From Candidatus Omnitrophota bacterium (GTDB taxonomy: Bacteria; Omnitrophota; Gorgyraeia; 2-02-FULL-51-18; JAGOUK01), in contig JBLINS010000003.1 of the NCBI GenBank assembly GCA_047639455.1, positions 3 through 64,002 on the forward strand: a stretch of 64,000 bases of DNA. The letters are read 5' to 3'. Below, piece after piece: positions 29,801-34,335 of this stretch. The position numbers were made by a program, and so were the translations under genes. Within the stretch, counting starts at the first letter, position 1. The number at the start of each line of letters is the position of its first letter. Below the pieces are notes generated by a model that had not been told where the DNA came from, made no database searches, and saw only the letters and a list, made by a program, of their open reading frames with translations.

Positions 29801-32635
29801 GGAGGTGAGGGTGTATCCTTAGGTCTTTTTAATGCTCCTGGAATTAATATAGGCGGTGAAGACGCAACAGGTCTTGCTATGAGTTCAATGGTAATGAGCC
29901 TTGAACAATTTATGCCATTTTTTAAAGATTTGCATGCGTTTTTGAAGGCAGCGCCAGATGGCCATAGACGGTTTGTCCTAAGACTAAACGTCTATTTATC
30001 AAAAGATGGTCAGAGCGAAATGAGGCCTGGCGATGAAAACGTCCAGATGATACGAAAATACATTGCAGAGGGGTATCCAGATCTTGTATTCAGGTCAACA
30101 GACGGAACGTTTTTTGAAATCTCTTATAAATCTACCGAGGTAGAAGCTACTCCCAAAACTGCGCCATTCACCCTTGAGAGTACAAGAAGGATATTTGGTG
30201 ATCTTGCAGCCAATCCATTATTGACGGAATATTTTAATTCTTTAGGTCAGACTTTGGAGAATATTTCTGTTTTTGAAGACAAAAGCTCTGGAGCTAAGCG
30301 GGGATTCATTCCTTTTAATTTAGATGAGCATGGGCGTCAGTTTTTCTTTGATTATTTGAAACCCGAAATCCGCCAAATCTTGAAGAAAACTGGAAGAAGA
30401 CCAGATTTATTGAATGGTCCCGAGGACGATCTTAAGGTGAATTCCATCACTGCTACGTCCTATATCCTCACGAGTAAAAGCGGTGACAGAAATATTCCTT
30501 ATGCCATATTGATTTATACAGCCATGGGCCCTATATATCTAGATTTGCTCGAACTCCACAATTCTCAAAAGACAAATCCAGAGACAATTAAAAAACAACA
30601 TAAATCCGTGCACGTTTGGGTCCAAAAATTTGTTGCCAGCGAACACCCAATTGAATCATTGAAGAGATGGAAAACAGTACACAGTCACCTCGTATTAACT
30701 CAATTCACGCGCGTGCCAGAGAATCCGCGTACTGGTTCTTATGAGGATGGAACTGGATCAACAGATTTTCAAAATCCTTGGTATAAAGCCACATATGCTT
30801 TGGATGTATTTCCGGAAGAGAATCGTGACCCTAAAAAATACTTAACTCTATTTGCATTAGAGAGGTATGGACAGGATGGCGAAGTTATGGATGTGACTTT
30901 CACTCCCGACCATCCTTTTAGCGTGGATTGGCAGGATCGTATTGCGCGTTTAATGGAAGCGGATGCCCAAATTGATGGGTTTGTGAAGAATGTTGATGGA
31001 GATATTGAGCAGGGGCGCATGTATGCTGATAGTGCTATCGGCCTTGGGGGTATAGGTAGTGGTGTTGACGCCCTACTCTTGGCGCGTTATGGGGTTAAGT
31101 TGATTCGTGGCACAGATATTTATGAAGCACCCGTAATTTTGTCGAGGCTAAATGCGGTATTTGCCAAAATTTCTGACCAGATTCACCCAGACACTGAGTT
31201 TGTATTTGAGAAAAAAAGCGGATTGCCTTCAATCACATCTGATTTGTCACACTTTATGATGAACACACCAGGGGTTGTGATGGATGATGATCCACACTTT
31301 AAGGGCGTCTTGGCCGAAACAAATATGTCTTTTTCTTCTTTCACTATTCCGTGGTCTGCATTCACTGCATTATTCACAGATACTAATGGAATTGATGATT
31401 TTTTGAGAGTCTCTGAAGAAACCAACTTTAGAACGGTGCTTTTGAGAATGTTTATAAGCCTTAAAGAAGGTGAGTTAAAAGAGGATCTTAATTCAGACTC
31501 GAGTTTGGTTATTGACGATTTTTTAAATAGGTATGACGATTTTGATTTTGATGAATTGGGAGACCATTTTTTCTTGCTTAGCAAAGCGAGAATGGCTGGG
31601 GTGTCCGAAAAACTATTGACTGCTGGGGCTGTTTCTCAGGGTTCTAGGGTTTTTGAATTGAAGCCTATTCAGAATGAGCTTGAGCAAGGCGTGGATGAGG
31701 AAGAAGTGGTTACTTTTGTGGCGCATGTGATTTCGGAGCAAAGTCGTGCGGGAGATTTGGTGGTAGGGGATACGCTTTTGCATATTTTGCAGGATGCTGA
31801 AGGACAGTATTGGTTGGAGGGTTTTGGCGGAGAAGCGCGTTTAATTGACTCTAAGGCTATAGTCTTGAATGATCGCGGGGACAAGGCTCAAGTTAGCATG
31901 TCTATGTCGGACTATCAGATGTTATTCGAGCAAGCAGAAAGAAGTATGGAGCCATTCTTTAAAGGTATTCCTGAAAGCATAACTGCTATCAAGGTGGTCG
32001 AAGCCTTTGATCTTAATATTCTTCCAAGCGATAACTTTGGCACGAATATAGCCTATCAAATAAAGCGCTATATCAAAGAACGTAGGAGTGATTCGAACTT
32101 TGTGGTTTTGTTCCATGGAGATTTATGGAGGATGGACCACGCTATGGCGGAGGTTAGAGATTTACCAGAACGGGATCAAAATTTATTTGTGCAAGACTTA
32201 GCGGATTTGCCCGTGGAATACTTGGAAGACAGCGATGATGTCAGAGTGGTTTCCATCGACGGATTTGATGTTGATGCGAATAGAGTTATCACGCCCAAAA
32301 TACCAGCTGTCGGTCAAACACCTACGCGACATTTTGTAACGCGAGTTTTGAACAAGGGTGAATTAATGCATCCAGCGGCACATAGAGTTGCCAGACTAGA
32401 GGCCCGACTACCTATATTAGGCCCTGACTCTGAAGCTTTATTCGAGAGATTCATTAATGCCTACGAAACTCTTCTAGGCCGTAAGATAGAAAATATAGAA
32501 GAATTCACTTTAGTTTTAGCAGGTTTGGTAGAAATACCCAATTTAAGCACCTATGTTCTCCCAGCATTCTTACGTATAGACAAAATCCTACAAGCCCTCC
32601 GCATGGCCAAACGTATGGCCGAACAATCCGCTTAA
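20804..32635 (+). CDS. giant multidomain protein (3943 aa): Ser/Thr kinase, GHKL-ATPase-like, PLP-like, second kinase-like, PRTase-like motif and tandem methyltransferase-like modules
   Basis: One uninterrupted ORF of 11.8 kb. N-terminal hydrophobic anchor or signal. Kinase motifs HRDLKPSD and DWG. N-box DVLSNA and G2-box GGGKGVGL. PTLTGSFKRR plus LGGGGPIAGAG. Degenerate kinase-like HGEP...LIDLDD. VLFIDDAAYSGRQI. Two paralogous Rossmann modules LAGSGSGVD...NAPG and GLGGIGSGVD...NTPG, each preceded by FSVDWQ. Confidence 0.85.
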   Translation: MINKNPIIKRTTQKKFLRGMAQTLILCLFIQEFAYAAPELLKKDIGSWVSVASQKQKSLKWAKKILPKIPGSVASIDDAWKSSVSVKERDDMTLKSKIATSLLRASRNDRVVILIQDAHTNASAQTNESKLFDILFQSNIIDTVYTEAAKGNVNLTFLRDKASLYKRKQIAKAYLQKGILHGIEYLDLTSEHNFKVEGVEDPSLYYESIDVYRHSLKKRDKYKAYLGKIESTINVLKPKLLNPYLLEFLESYTQVQKEEISFSNYIDILFAQAQLLNLNLKDQPNLQKLKKLKAMEDKIDFETVSLEQQQAIQSLSPEDQEELGDLSLSKLTLKDSQRGFFALLTEKLAKVEGGLSNYPNLAKYLRYLEQSKDLGLADTLNEQKLLEEKIFETLSANDDEAKLLLALKVLQFYKKLFSLSLTPEEYEAFKNENFANLKVLTGFLNQKLMTLKKHYNKALFLKEDFSDMATLSKRFYELTYARDQKFLENMNILTARETGDLKSPSLRSEWATNKEPMLRTGRVSEALSRKRRGNLSSRNSNISALITGGYHTPNLKHLLKQNNISYISITPQVTHETNTQRYEQILLNQPINNLVLPAMNTATTKHAMNPYLAPNAEVPSVFTNRFLSELGVDGRTVSQVRMAKPSESVFGDYDFPSPLIGVMSVGSRLYLGATKDGAEQHFVKLPANKNFAEVIAREAQLIRVLKSDERISPLIPDVIQSGTATEDDVDSLSNLFEGEPYIILKKADGISVINHIESMRDSDKPVEAIEVLAQIAEALATLHNVTDQWKAVYHRDLKPSDIFINKKGSAWSVQFIDWGLSTIEGQKLGKTIQDFSENALSDVDMGDSGRRLDYAGTDSYSGKILDKPLLRDLRAFVAIVRDYAYILGDNKAGYLLDDLLKRRASYPTAQSYANVLQQFLIENKDSTTSTSSMASKPDSPIDDTQASNLDSNAVRMADSEPVYINLAWAWSMVKTFLNKYKPDYASRLDAPRSIPFDIDLILSPESRQLIPPSNMDEEILVILIKDVLSNAFVEPDDGRVRVSFEQNEDKTLVTLKIENQNPIDYDQLMSRAKEALDNKQLYINDLSPHRLEVILPTDRSEYSAEEWQNLQLVDSEEKFLKVLGELGGKERLPFIIGLSRGKEMDPVLGGGKGVGLAMIHDVTSVLGSVFNLESNADIGTRVSISFATRPPSSARMVRRTAAVTRIEKSKEILEKVERTHTQTGLVRWVKKLEQLQGSGIERGVKDVFKYGKGDEGAKLESAKRLVRLFHVTWRADGSPEGVLPEVNARGDGRVRNALLRKYSAERIEKGIKNVREELLEPSGEREAPVVNLSKKIKVLKDFKKDSGIDIDLIASIEYKTHTGRPTLTGSFKRRQFINFFLENIEKFQLKNPKRIKQVFINSSGNAIQGLLFTVKVLKETGLLPKDFTVVMVAHDNLDPTKKKKIEKKYPGDFEEILFIGDFIEQAKELGDVLPADKTDKELHKELEDINALLRYIDLYVASYNKKNPKAPIAHVLPSNGESMALGGASIARNLRDGAKKLGLGEIDTIIEPLGGGGPIAGAGIEAYWYKEEHDHDTKVVGVTSNITVSALADGMAIQAPQSEAMAAQRALGSEAVAFERVPEKFFYKAWVDLQDAGYDAEPTSAASLAYIYWIMSDPSKWHLLKHEDPKKKKVIAFMLSGSNYSKSTLKHARKIYKTENMSGYAYIKAQAPEKQKTKGVRMTIPADAEILKVFSDSRAEVLDRLVNDEVEGLILDIEGNQYLVDSSLGRENFAAWVIVDGAVQEQKVVLKFTKTPGEAVSTKAYHEFRQQLPPDQVNESLDIFVDVLDIFVDVLDVYDEGIDIVVMEYIEGTMLNEIDDTQKQLEHLSSAWKVLHVNHQEYGLFHGEPVAKNIIVTPSGDERLIDLDDIIVLGAQPDIEKFDISNKYADIYYAGQAILELFEIHLLGDESALKDAVTEVNKPFDPDVAKFDVTVDVARSKAPQGIIDIVQRTLPVKGNNAYRSIKQIYTDLDALIMTPNWDKDPNVATTFSLGAKVVHEDQAWREGAVDAIEGATVWVDFGNERNGYGNNGAGLSHVDVSESLPGSTTRMAVQKPIVDMRPDADRVKALIEAQGTPLLQRLMAFLMRHMTYITQAVFEEKLELSVEQFNNNNEREFAVAIIDNVSPDDTSGVMKSNGWTYQIARGMGLRAPKEEISATKASLHTHTTDWLKKPENRAVNDVLFIDDAAYSGRQIEDWLDKVAFALSTEEEFVQRTITIHLAIPFMTNNAKDKLENLAQKFNDHVQRQVLEIQFYDQVIMKNLDEILLAAEEDVREEFGRIFSSDFKKPLTYFEHIRPDYYSTPYPISKGQFSLMEGLVFDAAGEVTHTIPIMPPISKKPYDRDYLTWIQKNILGGEWDSRVDKASEIALKFDDALSEAEQFEERKAGVRDQIIQRALALLEDESLDPGLKDNQFKGEAENAVTPASVVRRSLGEAYQNATYRSVKGSQDEVRVSASILDDVVEIKVSNPGVLRTKGGSENNEEPNDQARFQQLINFGSLITFDAATAFMARLISDDANQSQLGMSILAHMMTILYPADLYPDASYRPNQLIRLEPSGDRTEFILKLPLQPLRDRQARILDSEEHARMSENEALDELLPAAQKTKLKSELDPNSDLPGDDNLPGLRMSALAPKDMSVEKFKELFAPVDTSRTFTTLYNGIGSFDAETVLTPDGDKDAYLEFELKDSGKKFFGQLLASEMLQNDVDGLITDTLRDSPERIMEGRAKILAHKQGDYYYPYGILFFMKGSPPTLLTTVDFFTPSKMASDRYEVMHTAAKSWVDTHIARNNYIKLDGNKLYGTFDFSRRVQVLDKAKVKVQMIEGHRIESNMPWRDYLDKEISEDDRNSSQHLTLLALTRTMPGGNSFPVMMAPDDDFSVDWQELVGEYLERNSIAGQEVSLAGSGSGVDVVQLFKAGAKTVHATDLFDANVLMTEVNVQFAKDLGWIDKSATLYATKQNGIAGGEGVSLGLFNAPGINIGGEDATGLAMSSMVMSLEQFMPFFKDLHAFLKAAPDGHRRFVLRLNVYLSKDGQSEMRPGDENVQMIRKYIAEGYPDLVFRSTDGTFFEISYKSTEVEATPKTAPFTLESTRRIFGDLAANPLLTEYFNSLGQTLENISVFEDKSSGAKRGFIPFNLDEHGRQFFFDYLKPEIRQILKKTGRRPDLLNGPEDDLKVNSITATSYILTSKSGDRNIPYAILIYTAMGPIYLDLLELHNSQKTNPETIKKQHKSVHVWVQKFVASEHPIESLKRWKTVHSHLVLTQFTRVPENPRTGSYEDGTGSTDFQNPWYKATYALDVFPEENRDPKKYLTLFALERYGQDGEVMDVTFTPDHPFSVDWQDRIARLMEADAQIDGFVKNVDGDIEQGRMYADSAIGLGGIGSGVDALLLARYGVKLIRGTDIYEAPVILSRLNAVFAKISDQIHPDTEFVFEKKSGLPSITSDLSHFMMNTPGVVMDDDPHFKGVLAETNMSFSSFTIPWSAFTALFTDTNGIDDFLRVSEETNFRTVLLRMFISLKEGELKEDLNSDSSLVIDDFLNRYDDFDFDELGDHFFLLSKARMAGVSEKLLTAGAVSQGSRVFELKPIQNELEQGVDEEEVVTFVAHVISEQSRAGDLVVGDTLLHILQDAEGQYWLEGFGGEARLIDSKAIVLNDRGDKAQVSMSMSDYQMLFEQAERSMEPFFKGIPESITAIKVVEAFDLNILPSDNFGTNIAYQIKRYIKERRSDSNFVVLFHGDLWRMDHAMAEVRDLPERDQNLFVQDLADLPVEYLEDSDDVRVVSIDGFDVDANRVITPKIPAVGQTPTRHFVTRVLNKGELMHPAAHRVARLEARLPILGPDSEALFERFINAYETLLGRKIENIEEFTLVLAGLVEIPNLSTYVLPAFLRIDKILQALRMAKRMAEQSA
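26264..26313 (+). repeat. in-frame 21-bp tandem repeat (2.4 copies) inside the giant gene
   Basis: ttggatatatttgtggatgtt is repeated head-to-tail and encodes DIFVDVL DIFVDVL DVYD. Confidence 0.85.

Positions 32636-34335: not shown

Follow-up and report, generated by a model that had tools for sequence, protein, structure and literature searches.

How does a two-gene cassette encoding a toxin-like kinase come to lie between a giant gene and a transketolase gene (tkt), with the last codons of the giant gene repeated on the far side of the cassette, and what would such a cassette do? We address these questions for a stretch of 64,000 nucleotides (nt), hereafter the window, on contig JBLINS010000003.1 of a Candidatus Omnitrophota bacterium (assembly GCA_047639455.1), the features of which are collected in Table 1. 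Our reading, in which we place slightly more belief than doubt, is that the locus carries an autoregulated type II toxin-antitoxin-like operon, inserted between the giant gene and tkt with a target duplication of about 105 nt. The repeat on either side of the operon is a genuine rearrangement scar, and the duplicated gene end taken alone is an ordinary kind of genome rearrangement; the gene pair, as judged from sequence comparisons, appears to be a widespread variant of a known toxin family.

Both components are of interest beyond this locus. A large zeta-kinase subfamily, represented on plasmids, on viral contigs and in Omnitrophota, is consistently paired with an unannotated small protein encoded downstream, and if the roles proposed below are confirmed the pair would provide a new antitoxin fold, an inverted regulatory logic in which the toxin is the repressor, and natural fusions (winged helix to kinase, and kinase to partner) that are tractable for studies of mechanism. 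The duplicated gene end, for its part, is a clean molecular scar that would date and describe an integration in a lineage with almost no comparative data.

A zeta-like kinase, its fused winged helix and its small partner

The first gene of the cassette encodes a protein of 290 amino acids (aa) with the motifs VIAGPNGAGKTTF and GGHHIPTNVIRRRF, the kinase domain of which matches the Pfam family Zeta_toxin (PF06414) with 42.3 bits, against a cut-off of 22.3, over profile positions 80-189 of 199. Its AlphaFold2 model has a predicted local distance difference test score (pLDDT) of 91.4, and the top ten Foldseek matches of this model in the PDB are AvrRxo1-ORF1 (4z8q, E 1.5e-7), PezT (2p5t) and zeta (1gvn, 3q8x), with E-values from 1.5e-7 to 2.5e-5; a single-sequence search of the PDB with the same protein returned P-loop-only matches. 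In an alignment of 41 homologues the residues G108, N110, G111, G113, K114, T115, N133, D135, E174, R216 and H222 are invariant, and P143 is invariant or nearly so. The Walker A signature GxxGxGK[ST] is present as G108-PNGAGK-T115, the catalytic Asp after strand 2 is D135, and E174, R216 and H222 correspond to lid and nucleotide residues. The spacing of these positions equals that of Rv0366c (G9-S16, N34, D36, P44, E75, R116, H122), as judged by spacing and not by a structure-based alignment. We therefore assign the kinase domain, on sequence and model, to the zeta/PezT superfamily, where it would belong to a short branch that does not act on UDP-N-acetylglucosamine (UNAG). An earlier sequence-only reading of this DNA had proposed a winged helix-turn-helix domain fused to a zeta-toxin-like P-loop kinase, and had named a lack of zeta-family similarity in profile searches as grounds for abandoning the idea; the proposal agrees with what we find, and the Pfam score lies well above the threshold.

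For the N-terminal domain, on which the same reading had suggested a profile search, the PDB returned ArsR-family regulators (ArsR/SmtB-like), alongside weak Pfam matches to MarR and HTH_20. The PADLOC profile PDC-M05A matches this domain only, with residues 10-89 aligning to profile positions 13-92 of 201 (E 1.7e-15). PDC-M05A describes the nucleotidyltransferase of an NTase/HEPN toxin-antitoxin-like system (PMC12988326), and we rejected the identification of the cassette as a PDC-M05 defence system because the winged helix alone matches and no nucleotidyltransferase or HEPN gene is present.

A promoter scan upstream of the kinase gene found a sigma-70-type promoter, TTGATA-17-TATAAT, that agrees with the consensus at 11 of 12 positions. 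Two ATTGTTGTATA boxes (33107-33117 and 33129-33139) are interleaved with this promoter, and an inverted TACAACAAT at 33144-33152 overlaps the start codon. The same architecture, cTTGAnnAT-GTTGTA-...-TACTACAATT-GTTGTA-...ATG with the boxes 22 nt apart, occurs upstream of winged-helix-fused homologues, which are only 45-58% identical to the window protein, yet the box register is kept in most of them. GTTGT boxes are plain at six of the eight winged-helix-fused loci (window included), while one locus has a single degenerate box and another an inverted pair; the arrangement is present at none of five loci without a winged helix, and the background is 0.14 boxes per 75 nt. Consequently, the boxes appear to travel with the winged helix, which is the best available evidence for autoregulation and points to a fused winged helix that would control its own operon.

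The second gene matches its earlier description as a Lys-rich 53-aa ORF (open reading frame) starting 1 nt after the stop codon of the ATPase, and is a conserved downstream partner in homologues. At all eight winged-helix-fused loci an ORF of 52-74 aa abuts the kinase stop codon or overlaps it by, usually, 4 nt; small ORFs also follow kinases without a winged helix, including a stand-alone kinase of 194 aa, and among the homologous loci examined only one (L013), where no gene was called, is without a downstream small ORF. A profile search with the small protein retrieved at least 218 family members, all annotated as 'hypothetical' and none with a Pfam domain, of which at least 18 lie on contigs of the same size as contigs with kinase matches. 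Moreover, a C-terminal small-partner domain is fused to the kinase in 19 of the sequences in a scan that covered about 150 representative kinase clusters and 120 kinase homologue matches (e.g. P0245, P0321, P0247, P0362 and P0353; 232-285 aa), although some of these fusions could be metagenome frameshift artefacts. Such fusions provide a gene-fusion argument for physical partnership. On these comparisons the small ORF appears to be a real, conserved and translationally coupled partner gene. Its product is modelled by AlphaFold2 as a helix (9-30) followed by a beta-hairpin (34-47), with a pLDDT of 87.5. Nothing significant was found for it in Pfam, NCBIfam, PHROGs or PADLOC, and we found no description of the family in the literature, of which our collection is incomplete.

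The kinase family is large, comprising at least 4887 representative clusters (50% identity) at E <= 1e-10, and the winged-helix fusion is a minority form: of the top 150 representative clusters, approximately five have alignments that begin in the N-terminal domain. Kinase and small ORF occur together in no fewer than 12 different contexts, some of them on plasmids or viral contigs. A hidden Markov model (HMM) of the small-protein family detects the ORF directly after a kinase homologue on six IMG/VR viral contigs and on a conjugative Legionella plasmid, where a Tn3-family transposase gene lies beside it. Homologous cassettes adjoin IS66-, IS4-type and Tn3-family transposase genes, and the neighbourhoods of some homologous loci are rich in toxin-antitoxin and defence genes. 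Across these varied contexts the two genes form a compact, translationally coupled bicistronic pair, with a 1-nt gap in the window and 4-nt overlaps in homologues. In a separate observation, an identical cassette of winged helix-kinase and small ORF, preceded by an IS66-family transposase fragment, is shared by two assemblies (L008/L009 against L010, 3120-5109), the upstream neighbours of which differ (gltB/gltD against secDF-yajC-tgt-higBA-like genes) while the downstream genes are the same, placing the breakpoint at or before the IS66 gene.

The module in the window is of the same kind as PezT of Mycobacterium tuberculosis (Rv0366c) and AvrRxo1, and differs from them in the identity and position of the partner, in carrying the DNA-binding domain on the toxin, and in the existence of C-terminal partner fusions among its relatives. 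Rv0366c is a short zeta-like kinase without the GTXR motif, and it is bacteriostatic and neutralised by the product of the neighbouring Rv0367c (PMC6362051). It shares with the window kinase a core of about 190 aa, the GPNGAGK(S/T) P-loop, the N/D/P/E/R/H spacing and the absence of GTXR. However, its antitoxin is an upstream, PezA-like ribbon-helix-helix protein of 129 aa that itself carries the DNA-binding function, whereas in the window nothing is encoded upstream (the approximately 515 nt there hold no antitoxin gene, only elements resembling miniature inverted-repeat transposable elements, MITEs, and the promoter), the winged helix sits on the kinase, and the sole conserved partner, an unrelated protein of 53 aa, has its gene downstream. 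AvrRxo1-ORF1/ORF2 (Arc1) of Xanthomonas (4z8q; PMC5491322, PMC5087710) provides the top structural match and likewise has the toxin gene first with a small partner or antitoxin directly downstream, but AvrRxo1 is a larger, type III secreted effector with about 15% identity to the window kinase in the structural alignment. Its substrate is nicotinamide adenine dinucleotide (NAD), not UNAG, giving 3'-NADP (PMC5491322, PMC5087710).

Epsilon/zeta and PezAT (1gvn, 3q8x, 2p5t) resemble the window module in kinase fold, Walker A motif, catalytic Asp and lid Arg, and their operons are autoregulated via a DNA-binding domain and an operator over the promoter, an arrangement that is putative in the window. 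In contrast to the window, their antitoxin is encoded upstream, DNA binding resides in PezA or omega, and UNAG is phosphorylated through GTXR. EzeT of E. coli (PMC4826407) combines a zeta-like kinase and an additional N-terminal domain in one chain, and relatives of the window kinase too occur as single chains with the partner domain; in EzeT, however, the N-terminal domain is a cis-acting antitoxin, whereas that of the window protein is an ArsR-like winged helix and the partner domain of its relatives is C-terminal. A parallel to the pair itself is sll8004-ssl8003 on plasmid pSYSG of Synechocystis PCC 6803, where the kinase is 58% identical over the core and a 59-aa ORF with a 4-nt overlap has the same helix-plus-hairpin pattern, but where there is neither winged-helix fusion nor GTTGT boxes and the genes are plasmid-borne within a defence island. 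The literature mentions these two genes only in a list of those 'related to TA modules' (PMC4963859). The partner genes of PezT have been surveyed in a review that considered the upstream gene only (PMC10532202), and zeta homologues with several domains have been described as uncharacterised (PMC4826407). Our literature searches returned nothing on COG4185, nor on zeta toxins in Omnitrophica.

A gene end duplicated on either side of the operon

A repeat search of the window recovered a direct repeat of 60 nt (32612-32671 against 34190-34249) with 53 of 60 positions identical (88%), and gapped local alignment widens it to 121 against 104 nt, which maps the ends of the two copies to the limits listed in Table 1. 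The alignment scores 91.5, compared with 17.1 +/- 2.1 (maximum 24.5) for 300 shuffles, and two degenerate patterns of 28 and 26 nt taken from the repeat (at most 3 mismatches) both match just these two sites in 64 kb, where shuffles expect none. The pattern scans and the shuffle-tested alignment rule out chance similarity. The sequence-only reading had described direct repeats of about 55 bp and about 90% identity; the duplication of the gene end that it saw is real, but the repeats are longer, at about 105-120 nt, and contain indels.

The left copy reads cgt atg gcc gaa caa tcc gct taa (RMAEQSA-stop), in which the stop codon of the giant ORF occupies 32633-32635, and its counterpart in the right copy is cgc atg gtc gaa cag tct gct taa (RMVEQSA-stop), as had been noticed earlier from AEQSA and VEQSA ends in the same phase. 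Four differences fall in this coding part, three of which are synonymous and at third positions (cgt/cgc, caa/cag, tcc/tct), a proportion that is not significant (p ~0.11). The right copy begins 3 nt past the stop codon of the small ORF and in the same reading frame. Over 34184-34213 the relic gene end is thus in frame with the 53-aa ORF with only TAA between (LLD-stop-SRMVEQSA-stop), for which the chance is 1 in 3.

The duplicated unit consists of the last seven codons and stop codon of the giant gene, a 15-nt spacer, and the 5' two-thirds of the neighbouring MITE. Its first part of about 39 nt (seven codons, stop codon and spacer) is present at two sites of the window only and is absent upstream of other MITE arms; indeed, the 30 MITE arms in the window have no common flank upstream of GTCAT. 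The possibility, raised with the original proposal, that the flanking similarity derives wholly from generic MITE arms is ruled out by this flank private to the two copies, yet about two-thirds of the repeat is MITE sequence. Furthermore, the arm variant GTCATCAT is restricted to the two repeat copies among 30 arm-pattern matches, which makes their MITEs sister copies. A gap in the alignment corresponds to a nested palindrome confined to the left copy, the motif of which also occurs within a MITE at about 39601-39622. The left copy stops exactly where the 3' arm of the MITE would begin.

Between the copies lies a segment of about 1.45 kb (approximately 32733-34189) with two further MITE-like elements and the two-gene operon. 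About 480 nt, including the two MITE-like elements, separate the left repeat from the cassette promoter, and the repeats consequently bound a 1.45-kb mosaic and not the cassette alone.

Table 1 Features of the giant gene-tkt interval and its flanks (window coordinates)
Feature	Position	Strand	Details
Giant ORF (3943 aa)	20804..32635	+	Last 7 codons and stop codon within left repeat; from the ORF list
Left repeat copy	32612..32732	+	Gene end RMAEQSA-stop, 15-nt spacer, MITE 5' arm (GTCATCATAAGCC, from 32651), MITE loop; 3' arm missing
Nested 20-nt palindrome (CCTGCCTGTCGGCAGACAGG)	32681..32700		Left copy only; gap in repeat alignment
Complete MITE-like palindromic element (GTCATCCTGAAG...CTCAGAATGAC)	32775..32908		From repeat families; fold z-score -4.0
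Second-type repeated element	32960..33061		Copies at 5147-5248 and 58039-58140, inverted at ~39635-39684; fold z-score -3.1
Promoter and putative operator	33102..33152	+	-35 TTGATA 33102-33107; -10 TATAAT 33125-33130
290-aa fusion gene	33151..34023	+	Predicted ArsR-like winged helix ~10-75, linker helix, zeta/PezT-like P-loop kinase ~100-290
53-aa Lys-rich partner gene	34025..34186	+	Starts 1 nt past kinase-gene stop (34021-34023)
Right repeat copy	34190..34293	+	Relic gene end RMVEQSA-stop, spacer, MITE 5' arm and loop
Complete MITE including MITE part of right copy	34229..34321		Hairpin -50.3 kcal/mol, z-score -7.2
Transketolase gene (tkt)	34474..36489	+	Downstream flank; followed by tal, pgi

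How the module would work and how it may have arrived

From these analyses we infer a toxin, an antitoxin and a repressor encoded by only two genes. The kinase would be the growth-arresting effector, presumably phosphorylating an essential metabolite; the winged helix fused to it would bind the GTTGTA boxes over the operon's own promoter and repress transcription; and the 53-aa protein, made from the translationally coupled second gene, would bind the kinase and hold it inactive, a block resembling that exerted by epsilon, PezA or AvrRxo1-ORF2 on their kinases. The earlier view of the cargo as a toxin-antitoxin-like module is supported computationally by Zeta_toxin membership, fold and the conserved coupled partner; for growth arrest by the kinase and its neutralisation by the partner the support is indirect, from the relationship to Rv0366c and from the kinase-partner fusions. 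A role in abortive infection or defence, which had also been suggested, is possible, given the pSYSG island and the neighbourhoods rich in toxin-antitoxin and defence genes.

As to the arrangement, we infer that a single event brought, or fixed, the segment at approximately 32733-34189 between the giant gene and tkt. About 105 nt of the target would have been duplicated in the process, namely the final codons of the gene, the spacer and the 5' two-thirds of a resident MITE, such that the left side kept an intact gene end and the right side a relic gene end with a complete MITE. A single insertion with target duplication is plausible and is the most economical reading, because it predicts, without a second event, that the left copy ends precisely at the start of the MITE 3' arm.

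Several observations weigh against this account, in both its functional and its historical part. The UNAG-binding GTXR motif is absent from the kinase, where the matching segment is FETTLSG; a sequence-profile search of the PDB with the 290-aa protein falls short of zeta and PezT; and polynucleotide kinases, which with gluconokinases/sugar kinases and nucleoside monophosphate (NMP) kinases form the next Foldseek matches after the toxin kinases (TM 0.6-0.7, root-mean-square deviation, rmsd, ~3 Å), superpose on the kinase core with lower rmsd. The model of the 53-aa protein is without a significant fold match (the best Foldseek E-value, 0.8 to prefoldin, is meaningless), and its Pfam hints, to Phd-, HicB- or RelB-like families, are faint. 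On the historical side, neither an empty site nor a related arrangement was found in genome contigs, metagenome contigs, the protein collection or GTDB representatives. An exact-protein look-up of tkt gave nothing beyond the same assembly and its Logan fragment, and a DNA pattern spanning the junction of the unique flank and the MITE had no matches in metagenome contigs. Between the repeats there is no integrase, excisionase, transposase or other recombinase gene, the credible genes being the kinase and the 53-aa ORF, and on reading the sequence we saw no inverted ends of segment 32733-34189. The cassette has a GC content at third codon positions (GC3) of 0.33 and a codon-usage score of -1.09, within the host range (0.36 +/- 0.03 and -1.07 +/- 0.05), and composition and codon usage thus gave no sign of a foreign origin. 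Finally, a target-site duplication of about 105 nt would be unusually long, and the difference of 12% plus indels between the copies means that the event is old or that the copies are of separate origin. The inserted cassette with long target duplication proposed from the sequence alone therefore survives as the most economical reading, but the empty site that was to be sought in related genomes did not turn up, and the lack of a recombinase and the host-like composition count against it.

The functional objections would be accommodated if the kinase were no toxin but a regulated nucleotide, sugar or polynucleotide kinase of repair, metabolism or phage defence signalling, with the small protein as its regulatory or substrate subunit. 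The good superposition of polynucleotide kinases, gluconokinases and NMP kinases on the core, the missing UNAG motif and the mostly unstudied state of so large a family are consistent with such a role. We nevertheless consider it unlikely, given that the best Foldseek E-values belong to three toxin kinases, that Zeta_toxin is matched above threshold, that the residue pattern fits a validated toxin, and that the genes occur in mobile and defence-rich contexts as a compact, apparently autoregulated two-gene unit.

The historical objections lend themselves to two other accounts. If the cassette is a long-standing resident, its host-like composition needs no explanation, and the MITE beside the giant gene may have been copied or transposed to the far side of the cassette together with its upstream flank of about 39 nt, by flank transduction or template switching, with the donor later losing its 3' arm. 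That two-thirds of the repeat is MITE sequence, that the copies share the private arm variant GTCATCAT as sister MITEs do, and that the genome is saturated with modular, nested MITEs are all in keeping with this history. We judge it improbable all the same: it requires at least two events, since the left copy would have had to be truncated after the transduction, and truncated precisely where the homology ends; none of the 28 other arms has a shared upstream flank; and the sequence around 34190 and 34321 shows no evident short target duplication. Alternatively, the repeats may be attL/attR-like scars from a larger integrative element that targeted the 3' end of the giant gene and, like islands that insert at tRNA or gene 3' ends, carried a gene-end copy of its own, entering by Campbell- or att-type integration; the integrase and most of the cargo would later have been lost and the addiction module retained. 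Toxin-antitoxin modules often persist as remnants of mobile elements, homologous cassettes occur on viral contigs and near transposase genes (IS66-, IS4-type and Tn3-family), and the geometry fits, as the left gene end is intact and the right one is a displaced relic in the same phase. The predominance of synonymous differences (three of four) would also be expected if both copies had once been coding ends, but this statistic is not significant (chance ~0.11), and the host-like composition, the inclusion of a host-type MITE in the shared segment, and the lack of an integrase, excisionase or other element gene between the repeats make such an origin very unlikely.

Taking the preferred reading of an inserted toxin-antitoxin-like operon further, one may imagine a three-part family of zeta-kinase toxin-antitoxin systems, with an autorepressor fused to the toxin and a new helix-plus-hairpin antitoxin of 50-75 aa, either encoded downstream or joined to the kinase C-terminus, in which the cassette integrated via homology to, or an attachment site in, the gene 3' end and the MITE. 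We regard this extension as doubtful. Were it true, MITEs would be landing pads that mobilise small addiction or defence cassettes.

MITE-like elements and the flanking genes

The window is full of modular and nested palindromic MITE-like elements, the arms of which start with GTCATTGCGAG, GTCATCCTGAG and similar sequences. These elements are short, non-coding and multicopy, with terminal inverted repeats and stable hairpins, as is expected of MITEs, and 64 kb contain 30 matches to the arm pattern, a few of which lie inside genes and may be due to chance. The MITE-like elements that had been reported between the repeats are palindromic elements confirmed here by repeat families, arms and folding. 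In contrast, we identified no separate entity corresponding to a 'structured 64-nt sub-element' also reported there, for which the second-type element at 32960-33061 is the best candidate. The 3' arm of the complete MITE on the right is 93% identical to a copy at 60260-60299, and its hairpin could be the terminator of the cassette. In a search of 32000-35000 with Rfam the only match was PhrS, below threshold (18.3 against 37 bits) and on the opposite strand inside the kinase gene, and we treat it as chance.

Elsewhere in the window, at 60090-60196, a MITE arm (CGTCATCCTGAGGAACGCGTAG) occurs as three 33-nt copies in tandem, which suggests that arm modules were amplified locally. In the region 62310-62590 a segment of 130 nt is present twice, the copies being 151 nt apart and 92% identical, and a perfect hairpin, TTAACCGATTTTAACACTCCCGGGGTGTTAAAAT, occurs three times around the genes at 61236-63281 (including 63278-63316); the repeats and hairpins at 62310-62590 and 63278-63316 may be terminators or another repeat family.

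The giant ORF itself matches Pkinase in Pfam above threshold, whereas PALP (34.1 against 35 bits) and PRTase-CE (24.1 against 27) fall just below theirs; further weak Pfam matches are to HATPase_c, ABC1 kinase and PrmA-like (methyltransferase-like) families. Homologues of its C-terminal 600 aa numbered zero in genome contigs, metagenome contigs and a collection of 5.8 billion proteins, the last of which also missed the giant protein itself, such that very long proteins may be under-represented there. A pair of MITE arms at 21093-21135 lies inside the giant ORF, in frame, encoding the residues SEALSRKRRGNLSS while the ORF remains open, and resembles the palindromic elements inserted into the coding sequence of some other bacteria. 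About 180 nt upstream of the giant-gene start, a near-perfect palindrome of 29 nt with adjacent arms (20566-20623, 97% complementary) could be an operator or a terminator.

On the downstream side, the nearest tkt among GTDB species representatives is merely 61% identical and also comes from Omnitrophota metagenome-assembled genomes (MAGs), indicating a lineage without close sequenced relatives in the collections searched, and none of the tkt relatives in these representatives has the gene arrangement of the window. Two related MAGs (L017, 8365-9510; L021, 8145-9803) carry a homologue of the N-terminal ~640 residues of the giant protein, with 25-38% identity, directly downstream of tkt. As the giant gene is upstream of tkt in the window, the linkage appears to have been retained while the order was altered.

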